DNA of 64,000 bases from Patescibacteria group bacterium (GTDB lineage: Bacteria > Patescibacteriota > Patescibacteriia > Buchananbacterales > UBA6539), in the NCBI GenBank assembly GCA_041662625.1, contig JBAZSB010000001.1, positions 246,467-310,466 of the forward strand, written 5' to 3'. How positions within the stretch are numbered: position 1 is the stretch's first letter; every line of letters begins with the position of its first letter. Below are positions 4,201 to 57,862 of this stretch, piece by piece. The notes beneath the pieces are model-generated. The model searched no databases and had not been told where the DNA came from. It was given only the letters and a program-made list of their open reading frames with translations. Both the position numbers and the translations under genes were made by a program.

Positions 4201-7200
4201 ACTGCCGACGTTCCAGCCTTCATCAATTAAGTCATCACAGTCATTATCAACGCCATCGCAGACTTCAGTGGTACACTCCGGCGGAGTGGGAATACAGCGG
4301 ACGCTGACATTATCTAAAAATGTGCCTAAAGAATTAGAAGTACCGCCGTCAGCAAATTCCAGCAAAGTTGTATAGCCACTGGCGGTTAAATTATATTGAT
4401 AAGGTGACCAGTTCAGACTACTGCCGCCAGCACCGGTAAGCGTAGAAACTAGGTTACCATCCCAGTTAAAATTCAAGACGTTATCACTGCTGCCAGTATT
4501 TGGTCGCGGTGAAAAATTGAAACTGACTAAATAGTTATAACCGGGCCAAGTGTTTAATTCCTGAGAAATTTTCACTGAAGCCGGTTCGCCATCGCCAGAA
4601 CCATTAGGGCCGGCCCAATCGCCGTCTAATTCAACATATTGGCTGCCATCAGGAATCAAACCGGAGAATAAACCTGATCGATGTAATTCTAAAGTCGCTT
4701 CAGTTGGTCTGGTCTGGCCTGGATAAGAATCAGAAGAAACCCAATCGGTAATCCAACTGGTTAAAGATGGAAGAAATATATCCCATTTGTTGGGGTTAGT
4801 AACAATTGGGTTTTCAAAACTACGGTTAAGCACTAACTCAACATCCGGATCACAGGTTGGCGGTAAGCCACATTCGGGCGAACATTCAAACGAACCGTTT
4901 GGCCCGTCATCGCAGTCTTCATCGCCTTCTTTAATATAATTGCCGCATTCTGGGCATTCTTCGGAATAAGGAGATATGGCCACACCTTCGCTTGTAAAAT
5001 TAAAGGAGAAATGAGATTGGACTGTATGGCGTTCGGCAAAAAAGATGTCCACTACATTATGGCCAGTCAAATGTAAACTGCCGGTTTTAGTGGTTGGGGC
5101 ATGAATGCCGCCATTATCAACGACTAAAACGCCGTCTAGATAAACCCAGGCATCATCATCGGAAGTCAGAGTATAATTATAATCTCCTTCAGTCTCAACT
5201 GAAACTAAGCCGCTCCAGTGAGCACCGAAATGATATTCATGGCCATTATCGATTTCTTCGACTGCTATATCAAAAGGAAAGAAATTTTCACCAAAAGTTA
5301 TAGCATTATCAATTCTTGTAAATTTTAAATATTGTGAATCATACCAATCATCGGTATCCCAGCTACCCAGCGGATCGCCATGACCGTCATCCGGCCATTC
5401 ATTGCCAGGCAAGTTCATATCCTGGTGATCTCTTGAATAATTATAATATTGGCCATACCAGCCGCTGCCTTCAGTTAGCTCTTCACAAGTTAATTGTTCA
5501 AGGCTGCAACTGGCAGAACAACCATCACCATCAGCAATATTGCCATCATCGCAAGTTTCATCACCTTCAATTTCATTATTACTGCAAACTGGTCCGGTTG
5601 GCTGACAGGTCGGATCGTTAGCACAATCTGAATCAGCACAATCAACAAAAGTATCGCCGTCATTATCTATGGTATCAGTACAATTTTGTTCTGGTTCAAT
5701 GGTGCAATTTTCGGAACAGCCGTCGCCGTTAACAGTATTGCCGTCATCGCAGGCTTCATTGCCTTCAAGGGCATCATTACCGCAAACGCTTGGAGTCGGA
5801 CCAGTACAATCAGAATTACAATGGCCATAGACGCCGTTATATTGACTGCCATCATCACAGATTTCCCGACCATTAACTGCCCCATCACCGCAACTTTGCG
5901 TTGTTATACAACTTCCCCACTGACATTCATTGCAGGCTTTACTGCCATTATAACCAGTTTCGGTAAGACATTCATCTGGGGTTTGTTGGTCACAATTTTC
6001 TGATTGTTGATTAACAATATTATCACCGCAATATGGTACATATTCTAAAGTACAGCTTTGGGTACAAATATAATGCGGGGGTACGCCATCAAGGGTATCG
6101 CATTCTTCATCGCCGTTTTTGGTTCCATCGTTACAGCCTTCCTGGGCAACACAATTGCTCCAGTCCAGACAATCTGATTGGCAGGTTTTCTGACCGGCGT
6201 AAGCACCAACAGAACAAGTGTCAGTTTGGCCAACTTCGCAAACTTCACTGTAACCTGGGTAACCCTGATCTAAAATATTATTATTACAAATTGGTAAATA
6301 GTTACCAAAATCTTTATTGGTTAAATTCTGGCCTTCGCTCAGGGTAACACTGTATGATCCGCTTACCGGATAGGTTTGTTGGTAAGGCTGACTGCTCGGT
6401 TCAGCTCCTTCAGAGACAGTATAATTGCCCGGCAATAAACCAGAGAACTGATAACAACCATTACTGTCAGTCACTTGGTTATCCGAGGTATCGCCGCTTA
6501 AAACAATTGGCCAACCAACTAAGGTGCTGTCGCCGGTAATGCTGCTGTCTTTGGCTACATCAGAATATTTACAGCCAGAGATTGAACCATACTGACAGAT
6601 CTCTTCAGAGATTGAATTGTAAATACTTTCTAGATCAGTTTGACTGGGGGCAAAATAATAACTGCCACCAGTAGCGTTAGCAATATATTGCAGCATGGTG
6701 GTGTTAACATCGCTGCCTAAACCAATGGTAAATATTTTGTAACCTAAACCGGCGGCTTCGTCAGCTTTGGCTTTGGCGTAATTAACATCAGCTTGATTTT
6801 CACCGGAGCCACTGCCATAAGGTTTATTGGCTTTGCCGTCAGTCAAAAGAATTGCAACCTTAACCGCTTGCGGATTAGCCCGAACTGAACCTAGCTCATC
6901 GTTAGACAAATCAATACCGTCACCAATATTGGTTGCACCATTAGCCGCTAAAGCATCAACGGCGATTTGTGTTGCCGGATGATCAGTTGATAAACCTTTA
7001 TCCAAATTTGCTGTGGTAGCAAAAGAAACTAAACCAGACTGGTCGTTGAGTCCCAGCAAACTTAGAAAGGTATCGGCAGCGCTTTTAGCGGCGGCTAATT
7101 TATTTGGCGTAGGTGGTACTGCTGGCGTGTAATTATGAGGACAGCTAGCTACACCTTGATTGTTACATTCAGTCTGAGTTAATCCATTTTTGGTGTGTTT

Positions 7201-24152: not shown

Positions 24153-25259
24153 TTAGGAAGTTTGGTTCCTAATTATCATACTTTCAACTATGCCAATTGC
24201 CATCAGACTAATCAACAAAAAACTGCCGCCATAGCTTAAAAAAGGCAAAGCAATGCCGGTCACCGGTACTAAGCCAAGATTCATTCCAATATTAATGATA
24301 ATTTGACTAAAAAATAAAGCCGAGATACCTAGTATTACTAAAAGAGAGAAGTTGTCCCGCATCATTTTTGCGGCTTTAATCAGCCGGTAAAAAATTACCC
24401 CCCACAAAAAGAAAACTAAGCCAATTCCCAGAAAGCCTAATTCTTCGGCAATGACAGCAAAAATGAAATCAGTCTGGCTGGCCGGAATAAATTTTAACTG
24501 GCTTTGTGAGCCAAAACCAAGACCACGGCCCAAAAAACCGCCTGCCCCAACCGCTGTTAAAGCCTGCCGGACATGGTAAGATCGACCGTAAGGATCAGCC
24601 TGGGGATCAAAAAATGTTAAAATTCGATCTTTTTGATAATCATGGAAAAGAAAAATCCAGGCCAGAGCCGATAGAATGATTAAAGTTAAACCTAGAAAGG
24701 CCAGATGCTTTTTATCAGCGCCGGCAAAAAATATCATCACTAACCAGACAAAAAATAAAATCAGGCCAGAACCAAAATCAGGTTGTAAAACAACTAATAG
24801 AAAAAATAAACCGACAGCCGAAGCGCTCAAGAGAAAAATCTTAAATTCTCTGATCAGACGGGCCTGCTTATTTATAAACCAAGCCGAAAAAATAATTAAA
24901 GCAATTTTAGCTAATTCAACCGGTTGAAAATTAAAACCAAAAATAGAAAACCATCCGGTCGTGCCGCGAATTGTCTGGCCAAAAAGTAAAACCGCCACTA
25001 AAACTAAACCTACGGCGATATATAAGAGATAACTATAATCTTGCCAGAGGCGATAATCCAAAAAGCTAATCAAGAAAAGCAAAACTAAACCAATCAAAGC
25101 GGCAATAATTTGTTTTTTGAAATTCAAAAAATCAGGATTTTCTGAGCTGATGGTGATGCTATAAATGCCACTTAGGCCAAAACAAATTAGCAAAGATATT
25201 GCCCCAAATAATACCCAATCAAAGTTTTTTAGGCTATTGAAAAGCCTACGGAAGACCAT
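24153..25259 (-). CDS. SEDS family peptidoglycan glycosyltransferase (RodA/FtsW)
   Basis: About 10 TM helices and typical FtsW/RodA/SpoVE sequence character (…GFQPVELAKIALII…). 368 aa. Confidence 0.8.
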   Translation of the reverse strand: MVFRRLFNSLKNFDWVLFGAISLLICFGLSGIYSITISSENPDFLNFKKQIIAALIGLVLLFLISFLDYRLWQDYSYLLYIAVGLVLVAVLLFGQTIRGTTGWFSIFGFNFQPVELAKIALIIFSAWFINKQARLIREFKIFLLSASAVGLFFLLVVLQPDFGSGLILFFVWLVMIFFAGADKKHLAFLGLTLIILSALAWIFLFHDYQKDRILTFFDPQADPYGRSYHVRQALTAVGAGGFLGRGLGFGSQSQLKFIPASQTDFIFAVIAEELGFLGIGLVFFLWGVIFYRLIKAAKMMRDNFSLLVILGISALFFSQIIINIGMNLGLVPVTGIALPFLSYGGSFLLISLMAIGIVESMIIRNQTS

Positions 25260-32580: not shown

Positions 32581-32768
32581 AAAATTAAAAGAATTACGAA
32601 TCAGCGTAATTCTCGGGTATCATTCCAATATGATAACAGTTTTTCGCTTTAATGTCAAAAATTATGTTAGTACGGAATTAAATGAGATAAAAAAAGCGGT
32701 TGGCAGCGGTAACCCTTTTGGGTCGTTGCTGTCAACCACTGTCAAAATAGAAAACGCTGGACTGTCCC

Positions 32769-34061
32769 TCAGTCAGCCAGTCGCTGGACTTCGCCGATGT
32801 TATCGACCACCTTCTGTACCGCCTTGGCGATGAGGTCCATGTTGCTTCTGGGACCCATCAAAATGGCATGGTGGACGACCACGCCACTGTGCTCGTTGGC
32901 TTCCTTACAGACCGACAGATCGAAGCGCTTGGGGTTAATCGCGTCCCAGTATTCATTGTCGAGGTGGTGACGCCGCTTGGTCCACGGCTTGTAAAGGTCG
33001 CACTTGTTCAATGAATCGTATGGCGGCTCGAAGGAACCGTCTTGGCCTTCTTCGAAACCGAGTTCGGCGTTCAGGGCCCGGCAGAATTTCCGATTGCCGA
33101 TTCCGAGATCCTCTGTGGCCAGACGAAACGCATAGTTGAAGTAGCTCTGCCGGGTGACTTGCGGCCGACGATACATCGTCAGAACGCCGGGAATCTGCTC
33201 CAACAGGCCGTTCAGATACTGGGCATTGTCATCGCGCTGGGCGACTTGTGCCGGTAAGCGGCTCAGTCCGCCAAGCAGGATTGCTGCTTGCCATTCCGTC
33301 AGCCGGCAGTTACCTGATTGCACGGTATTTCTTGGTTTGCCGGATCCTTCAAGGCCAAAGGCTTTGACGCCTGATTCGGCAAACGGCCGGCCGCAGTTAC
33401 GCAGCGAGTATAGCCGCTCGAACATCTTCCTGGTTTGGCAAGTGTTGTACCCGCCTTCACCACTGCTCAGGACTTTGGATTCCTGGAAGCTGAAGCAGCC
33501 AACATCGCTAAGGGTACCAACACCCTTGCCTTCCCATAACGAGCCGTGCTGGTGGGCGCAATCCTCAATGAGACGCAGATGGCGCTTCTTGCACAGTCGT
33601 TGCAGGCTTGCCATATCAGGCATGCAGCCGTAGAGATGCACGGCGATGACGGCTTTAGTCTTTGGCGTAATTGCCGCCTTGACCTTGTCGACGTCGATGC
33701 ACCAAGTGCTTGGTTCCACGTCAACCAGGATGGGAACGGCATTGACGTCGATGCAGGCCGCAGCCGTGGCTTGCCAGGTCATGCCTGGCACAATCACTTC
33801 ATCGAACGCGCCGATGTCGAGAGCTTCCAGCGCCAACTGGATCGCGACGGTTCCGTTGGCACAACAGGCACCGTATTTGGCGCCAAGGAAGGCAGCGAAC
33901 CGCCGGGCAAACTCCCATTCATAGGGGCCGTCATACGACCATTTCCCCGATCTGGTTATTGCCGCTAATCGTCTGACATCAGCTTCGTAGCCTCTTGGCC
34001 AGCGGGGCCATTTCTTACCAGGAGCAGCTACTGGCTTGCCACCGTTGATTGCCAGTTTCAT
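32769..34061 (-). CDS. DegT/DnrJ/EryC1/StrS-family PLP-dependent sugar aminotransferase, in a GC-rich island
   Basis: Fold-type I DegT pattern: ...KYGACCANGTVAIQLALEAL...VIAVHLYGCMPDM...LIEDCAHQHGS...GCFSFQESKVLSSGEGG. GGAGGGAGAAUC-AUG RBS. GC is much higher than the flanks. Confidence 0.8.
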   Translation of the reverse strand: MKLAINGGKPVAAPGKKWPRWPRGYEADVRRLAAITRSGKWSYDGPYEWEFARRFAAFLGAKYGACCANGTVAIQLALEALDIGAFDEVIVPGMTWQATAAACIDVNAVPILVDVEPSTWCIDVDKVKAAITPKTKAVIAVHLYGCMPDMASLQRLCKKRHLRLIEDCAHQHGSLWEGKGVGTLSDVGCFSFQESKVLSSGEGGYNTCQTRKMFERLYSLRNCGRPFAESGVKAFGLEGSGKPRNTVQSGNCRLTEWQAAILLGGLSRLPAQVAQRDDNAQYLNGLLEQIPGVLTMYRRPQVTRQSYFNYAFRLATEDLGIGNRKFCRALNAELGFEEGQDGSFEPPYDSLNKCDLYKPWTKRRHHLDNEYWDAINPKRFDLSVCKEANEHSGVVVHHAILMGPRSNMDLIAKAVQKVVDNIGEVQRLAD

Positions 34062-34201
34062 GATTCTCCCTCCTAAACGTGGAAGACAAAAAACGGAGGA
34101 ACACCCTCCTTGAACTTGCTAATTTTTTACCACGCCTGAATACAAAAGTCAATCTAAAACAAAAAACACTTGGCGATTAAACCAGTGTTTTTTAAACTAA
34201 C

Positions 34202-44610: not shown

Positions 44611-44648
44611 GTCTGGGACAGTAAGTTTAGGTCCCAGACTTTTTTTGT
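44611..44648 (+). terminator. Rho-independent terminator
   Basis: gtctgggac-(11 nt loop)-gtcccagac followed by TTTTTTTG. Confidence 0.8.
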
Positions 44649-44737
44649 TGCTTATTTTTAGATTAAAAAAAGAGAGTGTACATGCCACTCTCCATAAGAT
44701 TCCTCCACGAGTAATTTACCCCCCACTATTGTTGCGG

Positions 44738-45805
44738 CTACACGCCGACTGGCTGTCCTGATTCAGCCGAGACATAGATAGCCTGGGCAAGAGCCACGGC
44801 TTTTCGGGCCTCTTTACCATCAACCACTGGCTGACGGCCCGACTGAATCGCCTCGGTGAAATCGCGCAGTTGAAGCAGATGGCCCTCACCCTTCAAAGCC
44901 GCAATCGGGTCTTTGGCTGCGGAACCGGTTCCCGATTCCCCGCCAATCTCAGCTTTGACTCTGTCATCTGCATCCTTGTGTTCGGCGTAATCGGCAAATT
45001 CCCAGAGTATGATTTTGCCGTCTTCGAGAACCACTGTACCCTTGGTGCCGTAGATTCCAAACCGCACCGCGCCACCCGGCCAAGTAGCGGTCGTGGACAT
45101 GACGGTACCCAATGCCCCGTTCTCGAATTCAAGAAGAGCACCGGCGAGATCTTCCATCTCTATCCCCTGATGGAATCTCTTTCTCGTCTGCCCAAAAACC
45201 CGGCTGATCGGTCCCAAAAACCACTGGGCCAAATCGAGTTGGTGGATACCTTGGTTGATGAGCGCTCCTCCACCATCGAACTTCAGCGTACCGCGCCAAG
45301 AGACTGATGTGTAGTAATCAGGTTCCCGCCACCAGGGAATGTGGACTAAGCAGGAAACAAACTGCCCAAAGCGGCCCTGGTCAATGGCCTGTTTTGTCAA
45401 CTGCGGCCCGCGCAGAAAACGACTCTGGAAGATACAGCCGAGTAAGACATCGGCCTGCTCCGCCGCAGCGATCAAATCGTCCGCCCGTGCGATATTAACC
45501 TCAATTGGTTTCTCGCACATGATGTGTTTACCTGCCTGAATACAGTCCAGGCCAATTTCCAGTCGCATGCCGCTTGGCACGCACAGGCAAACGGCATCTA
45601 TCTCCGGCCGCTCCAGCATTTCCCGAAAGTCAACATAACGGTCCACGCCATACTTCAAACCCAACCGTGAGGCCGCTGCATAAACTACGTCCGAAACAGC
45701 AACCAAATGGGCACCGGGAATACTGGCGATAGCATCGGCGTGCTTCGGCGCGATGTTGCCGCAGCCGATTATACCGTAACCGACTTTGTCTTTCTTACTA
45801 GCCAT
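44738..45805 (-). CDS. Gfo/Idh/MocA-family NAD(P)-dependent oxidoreductase, GC-rich
   Basis: N-terminal Rossmann motif VGYGIIGCGNIAPKHADAI...AVSDV; 355 aa. Confidence 0.8.
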   Translation of the reverse strand: MASKKDKVGYGIIGCGNIAPKHADAIASIPGAHLVAVSDVVYAAASRLGLKYGVDRYVDFREMLERPEIDAVCLCVPSGMRLEIGLDCIQAGKHIMCEKPIEVNIARADDLIAAAEQADVLLGCIFQSRFLRGPQLTKQAIDQGRFGQFVSCLVHIPWWREPDYYTSVSWRGTLKFDGGGALINQGIHQLDLAQWFLGPISRVFGQTRKRFHQGIEMEDLAGALLEFENGALGTVMSTTATWPGGAVRFGIYGTKGTVVLEDGKIILWEFADYAEHKDADDRVKAEIGGESGTGSAAKDPIAALKGEGHLLQLRDFTEAIQSGRQPVVDGKEARKAVALAQAIYVSAESGQPVGV

Positions 45806-45848
45806 ACGCTCTCCTTCTCCTGATCATCAGGTGGTTGACTGCGTTTCG

Positions 45849-46649
45849 TCAAAGTCCCAGCATTTGGTCCATCGTGTACCACCCAGCGGGTTTACCGGCA
45901 ATCCACTTAACCGTTGCCAACGCCCCTTCGGCAAAAACCTGGGGACTCTGAGCATGGTGCTCAAGGCACAGGGTTTCGCTTGGGCCGGCGAAGAGCACTG
46001 CGTGGTCACCGGCGATACTGCCAGCCCTGAGGGAATGAATGACGACCTGCTCGTCAAGTCTGGGGCTCTCGCTACGCCCAGCTTGACGACCGACGCTGAT
46101 CGCTAATTCAGGATTCCATTCCCGGGATTGACAGACGGTCTGAGCCAACATCCTGGCGGTGCCGCTGGGCGCATCCAGCTTTCGGCCATGGTGAGCCTCA
46201 ACAATCTCGATCTGAAAATACGGCGGCAGAGCCTTGGCCATTTTAGCCAACACTGCATTCATCACGTTGACGCCCAGGCTGAAGTTATTCGACACCAGCA
46301 CGGGCACGCTTCCGCTGAGCACTCTCAACGAAGCCAAGCGGGTTTCGCCCAAGCCTGTCGTGGCCACGACCACAGCGGTCTTGGTTTTGGCGGCGGACTC
46401 GGCTTGCACCACCACAGAATCCGGATCGTTGTTGAAGATCAACAGAACGTCAATGCCTGCAGTAGCTTGGGCGGGTAATGGTTCGCCTGGTTTGACTTGA
46501 ATCGTGCTGGTCGTGACCAAGCGGGTATCGATTCCAGAAACCGGACCGATACCAGGTTCTTTTATGGCTAATGCCTCAACCAACTGGCCCATTCTTCCCC
46601 CTACTCCTGAGATAATCAAACTTACTGGTTTCATCGTTCGCTCCTCCAA
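45849..46649 (-). CDS. Dihydrodipicolinate-reductase-like (DapB-family) oxidoreductase, GC-rich; probable start 46634
   Basis: N-terminal GVGGRMGQ dinucleotide-binding motif; C-terminal DapB-like domain (…EIVEAHHGRKLDAPSGTA…). Confidence 0.65.
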   Translation of the reverse strand: MEERTMKPVSLIISGVGGRMGQLVEALAIKEPGIGPVSGIDTRLVTTSTIQVKPGEPLPAQATAGIDVLLIFNNDPDSVVVQAESAAKTKTAVVVATTGLGETRLASLRVLSGSVPVLVSNNFSLGVNVMNAVLAKMAKALPPYFQIEIVEAHHGRKLDAPSGTARMLAQTVCQSREWNPELAISVGRQAGRSESPRLDEQVVIHSLRAGSIAGDHAVLFAGPSETLCLEHHAQSPQVFAEGALATVKWIAGKPAGWYTMDQMLGL

Positions 46650-46744
46650 TTTAGGGACACAAGGTTAAACACGACACTCACTAAACTAGCTCTAAATTAC
46701 CCCATTTCTTCCCTTAATGTCAATTTTTATGGTAAAATAATAAT

Positions 46745-50999: not shown

Positions 51000-51536
51000 T
51001 TATTTTTGGTAAAGATAGATTGTGGCTTTTTTTGGGTTTGGTTTATCAACGATTTTGGGCGGCCAACCGGGCAGGCTGAAGGCATAAGAAACAATCCGGC
51101 AGCCGGGTTTAGTTTCTTTTTCTAATTTTGGTTTTATTTTTTTCATGGCTGGCGGGGTCAAAAACATGCAAATGACATCAGCCTGGCTTAGATCCTGACT
51201 GAAAAAATTGGCATATTTGAGCTTAACTTTCCCCGCTAAGCCCCTTAATATTATTTTAGTATACCCTAGCAGATATGGCAAGGTAGCAATTTCAAATCCG
51301 GTCGCTTTAGCGCCAAATTCTGTTGCCGCAATGATGATAATTCGGCCATCGCCGGCGCCCAAGTCATAAACAATTTCTCCGGGTTTAACCTCAGCAATTT
51401 TCATCATTCGCCGGATGTCGTCTTTCCAAAGCGGTACCCAGGGAGCAGCAGAAATTCCACCCAAAACAAAGGTGCCGAGTATCAAAAACAAAAAAATAAT
51501 GAATAACACCCAAAAAATAAAGATTAAAACCGTCAT
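51000..51536 (-). CDS. Membrane-anchored class I SAM-dependent methyltransferase
   Basis: N-terminal TM helix; motif I VYDLGAGDGRIIIIAA. Confidence 0.65.
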   Translation of the reverse strand: MTVLIFIFWVLFIIFLFLILGTFVLGGISAAPWVPLWKDDIRRMMKIAEVKPGEIVYDLGAGDGRIIIIAATEFGAKATGFEIATLPYLLGYTKIILRGLAGKVKLKYANFFSQDLSQADVICMFLTPPAMKKIKPKLEKETKPGCRIVSYAFSLPGWPPKIVDKPNPKKATIYLYQK

Positions 51537-54106
51537 AAGGACCGCTCCAGCGGCGGATTAAATTCATCGGCCTTTCTTAAACCAAGCTGACTACGCCGCG
51601 AAACATCAGCTTCGACTTTTTTCCGGTCAGCCCCGTATTTCCAGCGGGAAAATTCTTTAATTTCCGAAGCAATATCCTTGTTGCCAATTTTAGGGGGAAA
51701 AGCATGAAAATTGAAAGCCCGCGCCGGCTGATTATCAATCAATAATCTCACATAAGCATTAAATTTTTCAATATTCATCAAATCATACTCATCAACGACT
51801 GGCGCCATTTGTTTGGCGATTTCCTCGGCATCTTCCGGGCCAATCCGAAAAGCAGCAATCGTACCGACATTACCAAAGATAGCGTCTTTAACTTTATTCC
51901 CCTGGTTTTTGCCTTCCGGTCCGCTACTTTCAGTTAATTGCCCGATATACTGATGGGCTAAAATTAAATTAAGTTTATATTTTCTGGCTTCGGCTAAAAT
52001 TGTAGCGATACTATCAGTAATAAAGTTTTGGAACTCATCAATATATAAATAAAAATCATGACGCTTTTCTTCAGAAATATCTGTTCGTGACAAAGCCGCC
52101 ATTTGAAGTTTAGCCACAATAATTAGCCCCAGCAAATTACTGTTAACTTCGCCCGTTGTACCTTTAGCCAAATTAACTAATAATATTTTTTGCTGATCCA
52201 TCACTTCACGAAAATTAAAGCCGGATTTTGGTTGGCCGATGATATTTCTGATCATTTGATTTTCCACAAACCGGCCAACCTTGGAAATTAAATAGCCAAG
52301 CATTTCTGATTTATGGAAGTCGGAAGTTTTGGCCATTTCCTGTTCCCAAAACGACCGGACCATCGGATCAGTAACTTTAGTCAATTTATATTTTTGGAAA
52401 TCTTTGTCCGTAAACATCCGAGGGATTTCGGCAATCGTGCCTGGATATTCCCGATCCGCCATCAAAGTCAGCATAGCATTTCTCATGTTATGCTCAAACA
52501 TTGGGCCAATCATTGAAGGATCGGTGACCAATTTATAAAAAATCGAAATCATTTCTTGAATCGCAAAATCCTGCTGGTCAATGGTTTCTGCTTCCAACAT
52601 ATTCAAACCAATTGGCCGCTCCATATCAGAAGGATTGAAATAAATTACATCTTCTACTCTTTCTTTAGGGACATGGGGTAAAATATCTTCAACAAAACTA
52701 CCGTGCGGATCAATGATACAGACACCTTTACCATTTTTAATATCCTGAACCGCTAAATTAATCAATAAATTAGATTTACCAGTTCCGGTCATCCCGATGA
52801 TATAAAGATGACGCCGTCGGTCGTTAGTTTTTAAATAAATATTACTCGTTACGCCGCGATAAATATTTTCCCCCAGTAATATTCCTTCCTCGCCTAAATT
52901 AGACGGCGGGGGTAATCTTTTGGCCAAAAGCCACCGGACATTTGGCGTTTCCAAATAAGGGGTGGGAAAATGAAAGAGACTGGCCAATTCTTCCGTGTTT
53001 AAAATCAATTTTTGGTTATGATGAAAAGTCCGATAAATGAAGCTACTCACAAGCTTGTTGGCTGATTCTTTAACTAATTTAAAGCTGTTGCCATATTGGT
53101 AAAAATTGAACTGAGCAAAGGAATCAACGACGCTATTGAGATGCGCTTCAGCCCTGGCTTTATCCGGCGCTGAGGCAACAATTCTAATATTGCAATCCAG
53201 GCCGGCTTTAGAGGTTTTTTCTTCTAAACCTTTAACTAATTCTTGCTCCATCGGCGAAAGAGTCCTTGGGGCTTTAACTTTTTCCGCCTCAATTTGCTTT
53301 GCGGTCTTAGTATTAAATAAATTAAAAACACTACTAAAACTCAATTTGGACATTGCTTCATTAACGGTTTTTCCTTTCTGAACTTCAGTGGCCACTCTTG
53401 AACCTTTGGCGTGCCAGCCTTTTTTAGCCGACCGGGCGATAATTTGAATCGCAACGCCGTCGGTCTTATTAATTTTGCTCAAGGAATTAGTAACGGCATT
53501 CAAGGGGTCAGTGCCCAATTTTTGGTAAGTTTTGATGGGAAAAATATAACTGCGGGTAAATTTTAAATAACCGGTTATTACCTCCTCTTGGGGCGAAAAA
53601 ATATTATAATCCTGGACTTCAGACAAATTCGCTTCGGGATGTTGGGCCAAAATTTGCTGTTCCAGATGGTTTTGTAGATATTTAGGAGCGGCGACATAAA
53701 AAGAAATTAAACCATCCCGGGCAACAATCTCAAAAGAAAAAACATCAGTCCTGCCCCAAAACCAGGCCCGTAGTCCGCGCTGGGCTTTTAGGCCACCGAT
53801 AGTTGAAAGCCAGCTTTCGGCCAAAGAAATCTGGCTGCGAATTTGCTCAATAGTTTTTTCTTGATCAGCCGATTCAGCCGATTCCTTGGGGACGGTGACT
53901 AAAAAAATTACTTTTTGGAATGCCGCCGGCAAAAAATTCCTCAATCGTAATAATGCCCTAATCAAAAAAACCAAGATAACCAAAAGTATTATCAAGGTTA
54001 ATATATCAATGGCGATAAAAAGGTATGCCTGGTTAATTGTCACTGTCGGATCAATGGTCGGATATTGGGGGCTAGGAACACCAAATTGAGTTGCCAGTAA
54101 ACTCAT
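51533..54106 (-). CDS. VirD4/TraG/TraD-like coupling-protein ATPase (T4SS DNA-binding domain), membrane-anchored
   Basis: N-terminal TM; Walker A IIGMTGTGKS; Walker B YLYIDEFQNF; 857 aa. Confidence 0.6.
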   Translation of the reverse strand: MSLLATQFGVPSPQYPTIDPTVTINQAYLFIAIDILTLIILLVILVFLIRALLRLRNFLPAAFQKVIFLVTVPKESAESADQEKTIEQIRSQISLAESWLSTIGGLKAQRGLRAWFWGRTDVFSFEIVARDGLISFYVAAPKYLQNHLEQQILAQHPEANLSEVQDYNIFSPQEEVITGYLKFTRSYIFPIKTYQKLGTDPLNAVTNSLSKINKTDGVAIQIIARSAKKGWHAKGSRVATEVQKGKTVNEAMSKLSFSSVFNLFNTKTAKQIEAEKVKAPRTLSPMEQELVKGLEEKTSKAGLDCNIRIVASAPDKARAEAHLNSVVDSFAQFNFYQYGNSFKLVKESANKLVSSFIYRTFHHNQKLILNTEELASLFHFPTPYLETPNVRWLLAKRLPPPSNLGEEGILLGENIYRGVTSNIYLKTNDRRRHLYIIGMTGTGKSNLLINLAVQDIKNGKGVCIIDPHGSFVEDILPHVPKERVEDVIYFNPSDMERPIGLNMLEAETIDQQDFAIQEMISIFYKLVTDPSMIGPMFEHNMRNAMLTLMADREYPGTIAEIPRMFTDKDFQKYKLTKVTDPMVRSFWEQEMAKTSDFHKSEMLGYLISKVGRFVENQMIRNIIGQPKSGFNFREVMDQQKILLVNLAKGTTGEVNSNLLGLIIVAKLQMAALSRTDISEEKRHDFYLYIDEFQNFITDSIATILAEARKYKLNLILAHQYIGQLTESSGPEGKNQGNKVKDAIFGNVGTIAAFRIGPEDAEEIAKQMAPVVDEYDLMNIEKFNAYVRLLIDNQPARAFNFHAFPPKIGNKDIASEIKEFSRWKYGADRKKVEADVSRRSQLGLRKADEFNPPLERSL

Positions 54107-54716: not shown

Positions 54717-55649
54717 ATGGCGACAACCCAAAAAGTGGAATTCCCTAATTTTACTTGGATTAATATTGGTAACCCAACAGAATCAGATATCAGGCAACTA
54801 GGCGAAAAATACAAATTCCATCCCCTAGATCTGAATGACTGTCTGACCCTAAGCCATCGCAGTAAAATTGACATTTATTCTAAATATACTTTTTTAGTCT
54901 TTCTTTTTCCTGTTTACCGTGAAGCAACTCGTGAGATTGTTGCCTCAGAACTTAACCTTTTCATCGGCAAGGATTATTTAATCAGCATCCACCGCGGTGA
55001 TTTGAAGGTTTTCAGTGATTTTTTTGACCTTTTTCGTCTGAGCTCAGATTTACGACAAAGATACCAGGACAAATCCCCCGAAAAGCTGCTTTATGAAATC
55101 TTAAATAAGCTTTTCTTGTATTGTTTCCCGATGATGGATCATTTAAGTGATGATTGTGACGCCATTGAAAAAGCCATCTTCTCCGGCCGGGAAAGGCATA
55201 TGGTTTCCGAGATTTTAGTTATCAGACGTAATATTACTGATTTTCGCCGGATTATGCAGGTTCATAAAAACGTTTTGAAAAAAGCCATCATCCATTTTAA
55301 AGAAAACCCAATCTATGTGATGAAAAAGGCCGATCTGTATTTTGAAAGTCTGATCGATTATGCCAAAGAAATCTGGGACAATCTAGAAAATCTTAAAGAA
55401 AGGATTGAAGCCCTCCAACAGACTAACGAATCCCAGATTTCCTTTAAGCTCTCCGACATCATGCGAATTTTGACAATTATTTCAGTCACCACTTTCCCTG
55501 TCACACTTTTAGCCACAATTTTTGGGATGAATACCATTAATGCCATGCCTTTCATGGGACATCCTTTTGGTTTTTGGATGGTAATCAGTTTAATGGTTAT
55601 TATAGTTTTCGGAATGTTAACTATATTCAAAAAAAAGGGCTGGCTGTAA
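54717..55649 (+). CDS. corA: CorA-family magnesium/cobalt transporter
   Basis: GMN signature in IFGMNTINAMPF; two C-terminal TM helices; 310 aa. Confidence 0.85.
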   Translation: MATTQKVEFPNFTWINIGNPTESDIRQLGEKYKFHPLDLNDCLTLSHRSKIDIYSKYTFLVFLFPVYREATREIVASELNLFIGKDYLISIHRGDLKVFSDFFDLFRLSSDLRQRYQDKSPEKLLYEILNKLFLYCFPMMDHLSDDCDAIEKAIFSGRERHMVSEILVIRRNITDFRRIMQVHKNVLKKAIIHFKENPIYVMKKADLYFESLIDYAKEIWDNLENLKERIEALQQTNESQISFKLSDIMRILTIISVTTFPVTLLATIFGMNTINAMPFMGHPFGFWMVISLMVIIVFGMLTIFKKKGWL

Positions 55650-55676: not shown

Positions 55677-55707
55677 ACCCCAACACTAAAGTGTCATGGG
55701 GTTTTTA
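55677..55707 (+). terminator. Probable intrinsic terminator of corA
   Basis: accccaacac-taaa-gtgtcatggggt hairpin followed by TTTTTAT. Confidence 0.5.
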
Positions 55708-55824
55708 TATTGACAAAAATAGGATATTATGATACTTTCAAATGATGTTCATTTTGTTATAGTGATTGAGGAGAGAAGCAAGGGAATCACATTCTTCCAT
55801 TAGGAAGGAAGGAAGGAGCAAGTC

Positions 55825-56067
55825 ATGGCGAAGTTATTGTCTGATAAAGACATAGTCTGTAGACGTACAACAGGATGTCGAGGCACTGACCGGGTCAGAC
55901 GATACGCTTGTGGCTGCAGGCGAGAGACAAATGAAAATCCGCATAGCCCAGAATGTCTGGCCAGTATGCGGGTCAATAGCCGCGGCAATCGTTCCTGCGG
56001 TCAACCCGGAGAACCTGAAACACACACTGCTCGGAGACGAGCAAGGAGGTGCGCATGTCGACACTAG
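55825..56067 (+). CDS. Cys/Arg-rich 80-aa ORF, first gene of the GC-rich three-gene unit; coding status uncertain
   Basis: GGAAGGAAGGAAGGAGC SD-like run 5 nt before the ATG. Its stop overlaps the next gene's start (ATGTCGACACTAG). Composition is unusual (15 Arg, 8 Cys). Confidence 0.35.
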   Translation: MAKLLSDKDIVCRRTTGCRGTDRVRRYACGCRRETNENPHSPECLASMRVNSRGNRSCGQPGEPETHTARRRARRCACRH

Positions 56068-56342
56068 CCCCTACCACAGATCTGACGAGTTTGGTCTACA
56101 CGATTCTGACAATGGCCGCGCCGGGAGCGTGGATGGAGGACGCAGTACCCGTTCTTACTGCTGCTTGTGCGGCAGAAGTATTTGGCGGGTCTACTGCCAA
56201 CGTCATCGTGATCGTTGGCAATCATGGCCTTGATGACATCAAAAAGGCCCTGGGGTTGTCCACCGACACCTTGGGCTTTACACACGAAGTTATCGATGGC
56301 CAAACCGCAAGCCAGCGCGGACTACTCCCGCCACAACGATAG
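56055..56342 (+). CDS. Hypothetical 95-aa protein, GC-rich unit gene 2
   Basis: AAGGAGG 5 nt before the ATG. MSTLAPTTDLTSLVYTILTMAAPGAWMEDAVPVLTAACAAEVFGGSTANVIVIVGNHGLDDIKKALG... Confidence 0.55.
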   Translation: MSTLAPTTDLTSLVYTILTMAAPGAWMEDAVPVLTAACAAEVFGGSTANVIVIVGNHGLDDIKKALGLSTDTLGFTHEVIDGQTASQRGLLPPQR

Positions 56343-56361
56343 ACAGGAAGGAAAGCAAACG

Positions 56362-56559
56362 ATGCAGATCCCAGAATTCGGAGTAGCAGACTGCGACGGA
56401 CAGAAACGTCCGGTCAGGGTGACCAAGGTGGCCATAAGCGTCGAATTCCTCGACACACACGAAAGTGGCGAGGTCACGGCTGAACAAATCGTTCACACTT
56501 CCTGGAGCGGAGCTGATGCAGCCAACGACGCCAAGGCTCTGAGCGAAAAGCAGCCATAG
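56362..56559 (+). CDS. Hypothetical 65-aa protein, GC-rich unit gene 3
   Basis: GGAAGGAAAG 7 nt before the ATG. MQIPEFGVADCDGQKRPVRVTKVAISVEFLDTHESGEVTAEQIVHTSWSG... followed by a terminator. Confidence 0.5.
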   Translation: MQIPEFGVADCDGQKRPVRVTKVAISVEFLDTHESGEVTAEQIVHTSWSGADAANDAKALSEKQP

Positions 56560-56582
56560 TCCCTCCCCCTCCTCACTGCGAA

Positions 56583-56637
56583 GAGCCCCGCGTCTGAACT
56601 GTAATGGTTCGGACCGGGGCTCGCATTTTTTTATTAA
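56583..56637 (+). terminator. Rho-independent terminator closing the GC-rich three-gene unit
   Basis: gagccccg ... cggggctc stem followed by gcaTTTTTTTaTT. Confidence 0.7.
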
Positions 56638-56926
56638 AAAATTGGAACTAACTACCGCAACCAACCCAAAAATTTTTAAATTTAAATCAATAATGATGGT
56701 TCAAGGGATGGGGGTTTGGGGGTCAACTTTGAGCCCACTGCGAGCCGGAAGAGATTTGATTGGCGTTAAAGGCGAATAGTTGACCCCCAAAACTTTTGGT
56801 TACTTTTGGTTACAAAAGTAACCCCTGCCGGAGGCAAAAGCTAAAAAGTAGGTTAGAGATTTGATTGGCCTGGGTGATAGAAAGAGAAAAATAACTTATT
56901 AGAGCTTATAATCATTAAAGAAACAT

Positions 56927-57862
56927 TCACTTTAAAATCTCTTTAATGTCTTTAATGCTTTCGACTCTAACCAACCTTTGGCGCAAATCCGCCGCACCGG
57001 GGAAACCCTTGGCATAGTAAGCCAGATGTTTTCTGGTTTCAATAATCCCCCACTTCCCTTTGGTTTTTTCGGCCAACCTCGCATGTTTAATGGCCACTTT
57101 TTTTATATCTTTGAAGTCTAATTCGTGATAATTACCTTTTTTTAAAAAATCCTTGATTTGTTTAAACAGCCAAGGCTTGCCATAAAGCCCGCGGGCCAAA
57201 CCCACTCCATCAACGCCAGTTTTTTCCAGCATCAGTTTAGCGTCTTCAGGCCTATTAATCCCGCCATTGCCTAAAACAATGCCGGAAAAATTAACTTTTA
57301 CTTTTCTAATCATTTCATAATCAATCGGCGCCGAGTAAGGATTTTTGAAAGGCCGGCCGTGAATCATAACGGCGGCTAATCGCAGATCGCTAATCGCTTT
57401 AATAAAATCCAAGGCAGTAACTTTATCATATCCCGAACGAATCTTAACTGAAACTGGCAAGCTGGTATTCTCTAGCACTACTTGGATTAGTTTGCGGCAA
57501 TGCTTTAAATCACGCATCATGGTTACGCCACCGCCGTGCGCCACAACTTTTCTGGCCGGACAGCCGAAATTCAAATCAATCCCATCAAAGCCGGCTTTTT
57601 GGACAATCTTTGCCGCTTTAGCAAACATTTCTGGCCGCTTACCAAAAAGCTGGCAGACAATAGGTTTTTCTGCCTTTTTAAACTTTAGTAATTCTAAAGT
57701 TTTTTTAGCATCATAATGCAAACCGTCAGCGGAAATCATTTCAGTGTAAACTACATCCGCGCCAAAAGACTTGCAAAGCTGACGGAAAGCTGAGTCAGAA
57801 ACACCCGCCATTGGGGCGAGCGCTAAAATTGGCTTATGAAGTTTTAACCAGAAGTTATTCAT
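56927..57862 (-). CDS. tRNA-dihydrouridine synthase (DusB-like)
   Basis: LAPMAGVSDSAFRQLCKSFGADVVYTEMISADGL; TIM-barrel Dus pattern; 311 aa. Confidence 0.85.
   Translation of the reverse strand: MNNFWLKLHKPILALAPMAGVSDSAFRQLCKSFGADVVYTEMISADGLHYDAKKTLELLKFKKAEKPIVCQLFGKRPEMFAKAAKIVQKAGFDGIDLNFGCPARKVVAHGGGVTMMRDLKHCRKLIQVVLENTSLPVSVKIRSGYDKVTALDFIKAISDLRLAAVMIHGRPFKNPYSAPIDYEMIRKVKVNFSGIVLGNGGINRPEDAKLMLEKTGVDGVGLARGLYGKPWLFKQIKDFLKKGNYHELDFKDIKKVAIKHARLAEKTKGKWGIIETRKHLAYYAKGFPGAADLRQRLVRVESIKDIKEILK

Follow-up and report, generated by a model that had tools for sequence, protein, structure and literature searches.

A rapidly diverging operon of three small proteins downstream of corA in a Candidatus Buchananbacteria-type genome

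Bacteria of the Candidate Phyla Radiation (CPR) have tiny genomes in which much of the coding capacity consists of unannotated small proteins, and to our knowledge there are very few leads on which of these proteins matter. Here we describe an operon of three small genes (ORF1, ORF2 and ORF3) in a 64-kb stretch of DNA from a Patescibacteria group bacterium, hereafter called the window, to which all coordinates refer unless another locus is named. The window has a GC content of 42%, carries the majority of its genes on the minus strand and, judged from the flanking proteins, lies in or near Candidatus Buchananbacteria (Patescibacteria/CPR). The operon occupies the plus strand of a 1,277-nt spacer between the convergent genes of a CorA-family protein (54717-55649, +) and a tRNA-dihydrouridine synthase (Dus; 56927-57862, -), with MGDG synthase, CysRS and a Mur ligase as further neighbours. 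Over about 55850-56600 the GC content of the spacer is 51-63%, and the GC island holding the three ORFs has 55% GC. An earlier note on this DNA had proposed at this site a GC-rich unit of three plus-strand ORFs of 80, 95 and 65 aa, the first two overlapping by 13 nt and likely to be translationally coupled, with a strong Shine-Dalgarno (SD) sequence before every ORF, a TTGACA box upstream and a GC hairpin with U-tract at the end; all of these features were recovered in the present analysis. As laid out below, the three ORFs are protein-coding genes under purifying selection, which diverge 3-14 times faster at the amino-acid level than the flanking genes.

ORF1 (55825-56067, +) encodes 80 aa, ORF2 (56055-56342, +) 95 aa and ORF3 (56362-56559, +) 65 aa. 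Upstream of ORF1, the intrinsic terminator of corA (55678-55706, +), read from the sequence as a CCCCA...TGGGG hairpin with a T-run, marks the 5' edge of the unit; equivalent hairpins with T-runs also precede the corresponding promoter in related loci. It is followed by a predicted near-consensus promoter of the sigma-70 type (55710-55738, +), consisting of TTGACA (55710-55715), a 17-nt spacer ending in TGA (extended -10) and TACTTT (55733-55738). All three genes are preceded by purine-rich SD tracts at 5-6 nt from the ATG, namely GGAAGGAAGGAAGGAG for ORF1 (55803-55818, +; 6 nt before ATG), AAGGAGG for ORF2 (56043-56049, +; 5 nt before ATG) and GGAAGGAAAG for ORF3 (56346-56355, +; 6 nt before ATG). 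Hereby, the SD of ORF2 lies within the 3' end of ORF1, which, together with the 13-nt overlap of the two genes, suggests translational coupling. The unit ends in a predicted intrinsic terminator (56583-56632, +), a 40-nt two-tier GC-rich hairpin (56583-56622) with a run of seven T (56626-56632) that is seen in the minimum-free-energy fold and was missed by a simple terminator scanner because of its long inner stem. Read from these signals, the unit is a self-contained three-gene operon with its own promoter and terminator.

The main comparison for coding and selection is a relative, locus L011, whose CorA is 94% identical to that of the window. The promoter block is 87% identical between the two over 55 nt, and the SD sequences of ORF1 and ORF3 have counterparts at equivalent places in L011 (GAAGGGAGGAG and AGGAGGGG, respectively), while the ORF1/ORF2 junction AAGGAGGTGCG[C/T]ATGTC is kept. 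The operon terminator is likewise strongly conserved; it shows one G-C to G-U change and, as a compensatory exchange, C89-G16 to T-A. Promoter block and terminator hairpin are conserved better than the coding sequence of ORF1. Within the 5' leader (55740-55824, +), the palindrome AAATGA-N3-TCATTT at 55740-55754, situated at the predicted start of the transcript, is conserved in L011, and in both sequences a 9-bp helix is predicted between the 5' end of the leader (55742-55750), including the first half of the palindrome, and the SD/AUG of ORF1 (55816-55826), with one U-A to C-G double change between them. The leader was rejected as a stable regulatory structure, since its folding z-score of only about -0.9 is not significant; the palindrome could, as a lead only, be an operator or a translational control element.

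All three frames are intact in L011, with equal or nearly equal lengths. The insertions and deletions that separate the two sequences measure 3, 6 and 3 nt within the ORFs, compared to 5 and 4 nt between them, and no frame other than the annotated ones lacks stops in both sequences. Differences at codon positions 1/2/3 amount to 27/28/45 in ORF1, 23/14/31 in ORF2 and 23/18/29 in ORF3, giving a third-position excess that is significant for the three genes pooled (Fisher P = 8e-6) and for the ORF1 frame (P = 6e-4). Nei-Gojobori estimates of the nonsynonymous (dN) and synonymous (dS) divergence yield dN/dS values of 0.30, 0.53 and 0.32 for ORF1, ORF2 and ORF3, compared to 0.03 for CorA and 0.085 for Dus. 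The underlying dN values are 0.52, 0.26 and 0.36 vs 0.037 (CorA) and 0.076 (Dus), and dS is 1.75, 0.49 and 1.13 vs 1.23 (CorA) and 0.89 (Dus). Frame-preserving indels, third-position excess, stop-free frames and dN/dS below 1 thus establish that ORF1, ORF2 and ORF3 are protein-coding genes under purifying selection; the frameshifts in related sequences that the earlier note had named as grounds for abandoning its proposal are absent from L011. ORF length alone is weak evidence, since several overlapping frames, on both strands, are open in this region, although three ATG ORFs of at least 95, 80 and 65 codons arise in only 0.4% of first-order Markov simulations of the region. The antisense ORFs conserved with L011 were rejected as by-products of nucleotide conservation, as they contain stops in one or both genomes. 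As a separate observation, ORF2 (56055-56342) and its L011 counterpart (6343-6630 of L011) share long runs identical at third codon positions, in keeping with the dS of 0.49, which could reflect an overlapping constraint at the RNA level or a more recent exchange of the segment.

The product of ORF1 is strongly basic (isoelectric point, pI, 10.3; 19 Arg+Lys; charge +10.7 at pH 7) and contains 8 Cys and 3 His. Its L011 orthologue has 80 aa and is 46% identical, with 7 of the 8 window Cys invariant, and the conserved core reads C-x5-C-R-G-x-D-R ... C-G-C ... T-N-E-x2-H ... P-x-C-L-A ... C-G-Q ... R-R-C-x-C. The Arg-rich C-terminus contains conserved Cys residues and looks structural. The earlier description of an Arg/Cys-rich, zinc-binding-like protein is in line with these data, and the conserved Cys and His residues indicate that ORF1 probably binds zinc. 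No metallothionein, metallochaperone or zinc-ribbon model of Pfam or NCBIfam matched ORF1.

ORF2 encodes an acidic (pI 4.5; charge -5.3), Ala-rich protein with a grand average of hydropathy (GRAVY) of +0.37, which fits the hydrophobic, Ala-rich protein described earlier. It lacks a convincing transmembrane segment and is predicted to consist of alternating beta and alpha elements. The L011 orthologue (95 aa) is 65% identical. Beyond it, the first gene of the cassette at locus L012 is a probable homologue on the basis of a hidden Markov model (HMM) hit (E = 0.036 in 5,692 peptides) and its syntenic position, whereas the second ORF of locus L044 (96 aa) was rejected for lack of similarity. No further matches to ORF2 were obtained among 5.8 billion proteins. 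Hereby, the word-index search missed even the L011 orthologue of ORF3, and synteny was the productive route to relatives, since single-sequence searches with ORF2 and ORF3 returned only themselves.

ORF3 (pI 4.7; charge -5.3) is acidic, as had been noted, and its L011 orthologue has 63 aa and 51% identity. All-against-all comparison of the proteins at this and related loci defined four groups, namely three families, which we call A, Z and B, and a set of orphans; a profile for A was built from 8 members including ORF3. Family A comprises proteins of about 65-90 aa with the N-terminal motif [FY]-[GA]-[VIM]-A-x3-G-x2-[RVIT]-P-V-x-[VLI], followed by a beta-strand ending in D; the fuller motif is F-G-V-x4-G-x2-R-P-V-x-V...D-G-H-M-G-D-G-R-E, with F6, V8, G13, R16, P17, V18, V27 and D31 as invariant columns. 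ORF3 fits the N-terminal motif, scores 85 bits (E = 1.6e-25) against a profile that includes ORF3 itself, and matches the A protein of L008 by BLASTP with E = 2e-5. By these similarities ORF3 is a member of family A. The DGH[ML]GDGRE loop kept in most members is absent from the window (LDTHESGEV) and from L011 (LDELESGTI), and by sequence the two form a divergent subgroup. Besides the window and L011, A is found in L008, L028, L039, L045 and L046. Searching 1.84 billion representative proteins with the A profile gave 7 true members; P0068 and P0070 were discarded as repeat-protein noise, and the second ORF of L020, tried as a further member, was not detected.

A has a Cys-rich partner in each of its 8 known contexts (window, L011, L008, L028, L039, L044/P0069, L045/P0067 and L046/P0071). 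It is adjacent to a Z gene, in the order A-Z or Z-A, in L008, L039, L045 and L046; it is fused to Z in the 123-aa protein P0003 of L028; and it shares an operon with ORF1, which lies upstream of ORF3, in the window and L011. In the 145-aa protein P0069 it is fused to a Cys-rich tail, E-C-G-G...E-C-G-C-N-E-L-D-H-V-G-H-R-T-D-P-L-C...C. This tail matches ORF1 weakly by two methods: hhalign gives a probability of 7.5% (P = 0.005), and the tail is the best non-self match of the ORF1 HMM (E = 0.04 among 5,692 peptides), with five Cys, the His and two Pro in register with the ORF1 core. The ORF1-like nature of the tail accordingly has to be rated as weak. All eight A genes lie at the corA locus, except that of L044, a 1-kb metagenome contig without flanking genes. 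The latter (1-1037 of L044) carries two tandem mini-cassettes, each with its own TTGACA-type promoter, SD and hairpin terminator, of which the first encodes the A module fused to the ORF1-like Cys-rich tail and the second an acidic 96-aa orphan with a CxxC motif.

The structure prediction suggested earlier gave a usable result for ORF3 and not for ORF2, whose single-sequence AlphaFold2 model (predicted local distance difference test, pLDDT, 49) was unusable and was set aside. For ORF3, a model based on four family members (pLDDT 78) shows four strands of at least 3 residues plus a short bridge, followed by a C-terminal helix. The protein is thus predicted to be a small beta-sheet or barrel with a C-terminal helix. 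The best Foldseek matches in the PDB are all SH3-like barrels (PWWP, Tudor, SH3, Sac7d), none of them significant, and a fold search of the viral structure library BFVD gave nothing significant for ORF3.

Family Z consists of zinc-ribbon proteins of about 60 aa with the motif M-I-[IV]-Q-C-C-V-C-K-K...W...S-H-G-Y-C-P-x-C, comprising 5 Cys and 2 His. Members were found in L007 (in tandem), L008, L020, L021, L023, L028, L036, L039, L045 and L046. Z also occurs as a lone gene in many phyla (Hydrogenedentes, Nitrospiraceae, Parcubacteria), and in four loci of other lineages the Z genes are not adjacent to corA. The window has no Z gene. By eye, the SH..P.C stretch of ORF1 and the spacing resemble Z, but ORF1 was rejected as a degenerate Z ribbon and Z member by hhalign (probability 0.7%) and by an HMM test, in which scores of 0.1 and -1.4 bits did not exceed those of shuffled sequences (p = 0.16 and 0.22). 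Because these profile tests failed, ORF1 is taken as the functional counterpart of Z in this lineage and not as a demonstrated homologue. Three side observations concern Z. Many members from outside the CPR end in -AA, resembling an ssrA-type degradation tag (P0006-P0066; L036, L039, L040, L043, L047 and L048 examined). In L040, a stand-alone Z gene is overlapped by the gene of a 192-aa protein that matches receiver domains weakly and has a Z-like motif at its end. Finally, a six-frame scan of the window returned a 30-aa stop-to-stop fragment at 24379-24468 (-) with a marginal match to the Z profile (E = 8e-4, 15.5 bits), probably noise in a larger gene. The B family (108-117 aa) occurs in L021, L023 and, weakly, L036.

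Apart from the probable ORF2 homologue in L012, ORF1 and ORF2 are orphans confined to the window and L011. The earlier note had recognised no homology by eye, and in the libraries this held: ORF1, ORF2 and ORF3 match no named family in Pfam, NCBIfam, PADLOC, PHROGs, Rfam or the PDB, and A, Z and B likewise have no match in Pfam, NCBIfam, PADLOC, PHROGs or PDB sequences. From PHROGs there was only a match of 13.8 bits (E = 0.16). Literature searches on the Z motif and on small zinc-ribbon proteins of the CPR found no papers. ORF1, ORF2, ORF3, A and Z are new to the libraries and literature searched, whereas a small operon built around a zinc-binding mini-protein is of a familiar kind.

Using CorA as an anchor, we collected 6 loci from GTDB genomes and 25 from metagenomes; further loci were found later. 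The gene order T4CP-like ATPase, p163, CorA, then convergent Dus, MGDG synthase, CysRS and Mur ligase is conserved in the 31 fetched loci. In 19 of these the space after corA is shorter than 150 nt and holds terminators only; the site is empty in, among others, the relatives L005 and L009. Standing apart are L025 and L027, whose spacers measure 206 and 365 nt and lack a cassette-type promoter. A GC-rich cassette of small ORFs is present in the window, L007, L008 (= L026), L011, L012, L020, L021, L023, L024 and L028, and also at the later-found loci L036-L038, L039, L045 and L046, which amounts to about half of 40 related loci. All cassettes fetched from Buchananbacteria-type genomes (about 20 loci) immediately follow corA and share its strand. 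The cassettes share a design: after the corA terminator, a perfect TTGACA and a near-consensus -10 separated by 17 nt, in many cases with TG at the end of the spacer (13 of 15 loci scanned; L045 and L046 carry this promoter too), a leader of about 50-110 nt, strong SD sites, genes for one to three small proteins that belong to a few families, and a large terminator hairpin. The commonest pair is Z with A, the protein of about 65 aa made of beta strands and a helix. Tandem cassettes, two each and every one with its own promoter and terminator, occur in L011 and L044; in L011, the second cassette (5011-5913 of L011) lies between corA and the three-gene operon, has a TTGACA promoter at 5011 and contains a GC-rich orphan ORF of 230 aa (5221-5913) with no match in Pfam or NCBIfam. 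By position and signals, the operon of the window is one variant of this corA-downstream cassette of Candidatus Buchananbacteria-type genomes.

Cassette proteins are less identical than the accompanying CorA proteins in 43 of 43 pairs, and their identity rises with that of CorA (e.g. window-L011, L021-L023, L039-L045). Because cassette identity tracks CorA identity, vertical descent with rapid divergence and repeated loss accounts for the pattern, not repeated import. The operon also sits at the same site in L011 at dS of about 1; on these two grounds its vertical inheritance goes back a long way, and it has kept its high GC throughout. The GC content at third codon positions (GC3) is 0.57 for ORF2 and 0.62 for ORF3, compared to about 0.40 in host genes, and it remains at 0.52-0.62 for both genes in the window and in L011 despite saturated synonymous sites, so the high GC is not a sign of recent transfer. 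Thus, of the foreign composition proposed earlier, the high GC relative to the host stands, whereas a reading of it as recent import is not supported. Further copies of the operon families were absent from the 64-kb window, and no relatives turned up in IMG/VR (pattern scans), INPHARED phages (tblastn) or PLSDB plasmids. Comparison of the island with the rest of the window revealed no similarity, by which a repeat or mobile element was rejected, and no boundary repeats, attC sites not having been modelled formally.

The remainder of the spacer (56640-56926) is a separate AT-rich segment absent from L011. Two strong hairpins lie in it, with arms at 56715-56735/56771-56791 and at 56798-56808/56813-56823, and the 15-nt sequence AGAGATTTGATTGGC occurs as a direct repeat at 56750 and 56855. 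In the opposite orientation, 9748-9799 of L008 matches a 53-nt stretch of the segment with 91% identity. The segment may represent a small repeat element or serve Dus as a region of bidirectional termination.

Taking these observations together, we favour, with a probability of roughly 0.45, the view that the operon is a chromosomal, vertically inherited and rapidly diverging cassette variant in which ORF1 and ORF3, possibly with ORF2, form a small binding or regulatory complex. From the data above we infer the complex, its metal, its target and its role as follows. The signals of the operon point to strong expression of a stand-alone unit, in which ORF1, ORF2 and probably ORF3 would be produced at a constant ratio owing to translational coupling. 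ORF1 would bind zinc via its conserved Cys and His residues and a polyanion, most likely nucleic acid, via its positive charge, while the acidic ORF3 barrel would bind ORF1 directly, as the fusions of A to Z and to a Cys-rich tail imply; ORF2 perhaps joins the complex. The charges of the partners are complementary (+10.7 for ORF1, -5.3 each for ORF2 and ORF3). Fast amino-acid change along with frequent loss or replacement of modules suggests a quickly changing target or a dispensable function.

Several points weigh against this view. No homology in Pfam, NCBIfam, PADLOC, PHROGs or the PDB ties the three proteins to any function. Transcription of the operon is predicted from sequence signals, and the probable zinc binding of ORF1 is deduced from Cys and His conservation. 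The evidence for an ORF1-ORF3 interaction is charge, operon linkage and one fusion whose tail is weakly ORF1-like (P = 0.005; E = 0.04), and the fold match of ORF3 is not significant (E about 0.09, template modelling (TM) score about 0.58) and derives from a model built on a four-sequence alignment. Rapid divergence with gain and loss is also seen in conflict systems. Moreover, the sustained GC-richness and the low dS of ORF2 fall outside the proposed model.

A related and bolder view, to which we would give only a modest chance, is that the cassettes represent an undescribed, Patescibacteria-specific two-part system, in which a zinc-binding protein of the Z or ORF1 type and the beta-barrel partner A diversify against a changing target, several-fold faster than the neighbouring genes, while the system remains at one chromosomal site under a conserved strong promoter. 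The target might be, for example, a phage, a competitor or the host cell of these episymbionts, and ORF1-ORF2-ORF3 would have arisen as a lineage-specific re-invention, with the canonical zinc ribbon replaced.

Rather unlikely, in our estimate, is the toxin-antitoxin (TA), immunity or anti-defence module proposed in the earlier note, in which one protein, e.g. the basic ORF1, would be toxic or blocking, an acidic partner would neutralise it and an arms race would drive the evolution. The small, tightly coupled genes with their basic and acidic pairing, the dN of 3-14 times that of flanking genes, the presence/absence variation and the module shuffling at the locus would all suit such a module, and the palindrome at the promoter could be an autoregulatory operator. 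However, no toxin, antitoxin or defence model of Pfam, NCBIfam, PADLOC or PHROGs matched any of the three proteins at E up to 10; the search of defence databases that had been recommended returned nothing from PADLOC and from PHROGs only the 13.8-bit score given above. In addition, dN/dS is well below 1 in all three genes, and the system is confined to one locus in one lineage, is not multi-copy, with 7 true A proteins in 1.84 billion representatives, and is absent from the phages, viral contigs and plasmids searched. A is, moreover, fused to its partner twice. Fused toxin-antitoxin proteins exist, but the fusion of an ORF3-type module to a Cys-rich partner fits cooperating domains better than antagonists.

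Still less probable appears a metal-handling accessory of CorA, in which ORF1 and Z would buffer or chaperone zinc, cobalt or a related cation, or regulate the channel. Zinc and cobalt transporters are known among the CorA-family proteins, the 80 aa of ORF1 include 8 Cys and 3 His and the roughly 60 aa of Z 5 Cys and 2 His, and the roughly 20 Buchananbacteria-type cassettes are all directly 3' of corA on the same strand. This adjacency carries little information, though, given the strong synteny of the entire region. The cassette is set off from corA by the corA terminator and a promoter of its own, corA stands without a cassette in about half of the related genomes, and Z is not beside corA in the four loci of other lineages. 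Furthermore, the Z motif looks like a structural zinc ribbon, no metallothionein or metallochaperone model of Pfam matched, and such rapid divergence would be unusual for metal-homeostasis proteins.

At 51533-54106 (-) the window encodes an 857-aa membrane ATPase with DUF8128, DUF87, T4SS-DNA_transf and TrwB_AAD_bind domains (VirD4/TraG-like), which is conserved in every relative at this place, two genes before the cassette site, with or without cassette. The small proteins might be host-directed effectors of an episymbiotic lifestyle, possibly recruited by this VirD4/TrwB-like ATPase. Their fast evolution and lineage restriction, the signals suggesting high expression, the conserved synteny with the DUF87/TrwB/T4SS-DNA_transf ATPase and the Arg-rich C-terminus of ORF1 speak for this idea, but we regard it as very unlikely: the proteins lack a signal peptide and any known effector domain, cassette and ATPase are separated by corA, the ATPase is on the opposite strand and is kept in genomes without the cassette, and the Arg-rich C-terminus, with its conserved Cys, looks structural.

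The window contains further GC-rich islands (32668-34153 and 44641-46665; 55-57% GC) that encode a DegT/DnrJ-type aminotransferase, a GFO/IDH/MocA oxidoreductase and a DapB-like reductase, probably acquired genes of sugar or amino-acid modification. Perfect TTGACA-N17-TAnnnT promoter matches number 5 in the 64 kb vs 0.83 expected from shuffling (20411, 32658(-), 44030(-), 44073 and 55710), two of them flanking the GC-rich island at 44 kb. Enzyme islands that look acquired, the GC of 55% vs 42%, the GC3 of ORF2 and ORF3 and the empty site in L005 and L009 could lead one to see the operon, too, as recently imported foreign DNA or a mobile cassette without a long-term role in the lineage. We give this even less credence, since the operon occupies the same site in L011 despite a dS of about 0.5-1.75, its divergence tracks that of CorA, the promoter is conserved across cassettes, and neither an integrase or transposase, an att-like duplication, a plasmid or phage relative nor, among 5.8 billion proteins, a donor homologue was found. 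An integron or mobile gene cassette was rejected for the same lack of integrase and transposase in the neighbourhood, which consists of CorA, Dus, MGDG synthase, CysRS and Mur ligase.

The plus strand of the operon folds better than shuffled sequences (z = -7.8 with 20 shuffles, z = -4.8 with 40). With 40 shuffles, other cassettes give -2.2 to -6.0, the GC-rich enzyme genes of the window -2.6 to -3.5 and host genes about 0. The folding signal of the operon is thus partly generic, and its mRNAs fold somewhat better than comparable genes. Rfam gave no hit at gathering score over the whole window and only noise at E up to 10 over the operon region. A structured non-coding RNA in a GC-rich island of an AT-rich genome, its several open frames mere by-products of composition, which the earlier note had itself raised as a competing explanation, can practically be dismissed: as sole explanation it is contradicted by the clear coding signature and by protein homology that remains recognisable where DNA similarity has vanished, it has no Rfam family, and the GC-rich enzyme genes also fold well.

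In conclusion, three hypothetical proteins have become a defined recurrent unit with a fixed locus, a conserved promoter and terminator design, two or three fusion-linked families and a measured rate of evolution well above that of its neighbours. The Cys-rich protein and A form a concrete pair for studies of complex formation, metal and target binding, the site downstream of corA is a marker locus of rapid evolution in Buchananbacteria, and a widespread, unannotated zinc-ribbon family, Z, is brought to light. Should the operon serve ordinary housekeeping regulation, the finding would be modest; a role in host interaction or in conflict would make it a new system of that kind.

Compared to known systems, the operon resembles type II TA operons in having two or three small co-translated genes, basic and acidic pairing, patchy presence and fast evolution. 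It differs from them in having no recognisable toxin or antitoxin domain, a fixed chromosomal site, no association with mobile elements, partners that are sometimes fused, and three genes instead of two. The ORF3 model, with 4-5 strands and a helix in about 65 aa, has all its top Foldseek matches, none of them significant, among SH3-like barrels such as a prokaryotic PWWP domain bound to single-stranded DNA (PDB 6kco), Tudor and Sac7d/Sso7d, but ORF3 is acidic, whereas DNA binders of the Sac7d type are basic, and there is no sequence similarity. Small prokaryotic zinc-ribbon proteins (about 50-70 aa with two Cys knuckles, some of them regulators) are likewise small, Cys-rich and mostly basic, as are ORF1 and Z, and the genes of both are similarly monocistronic or in tiny operons. 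Hereby, Z shares the classic CxxC...CPxC arrangement, whereas the Cys spacing of ORF1 (C-x5-C ... C-G-C ... C ... C ... C-x-C) is not that of a canonical ribbon. Within the cassettes themselves, Z fills the position of ORF1 in sister lineages, under the same promoter and paired likewise with A. Z is widespread across phyla, whereas ORF1, ORF2 and A occur at the corA locus only.

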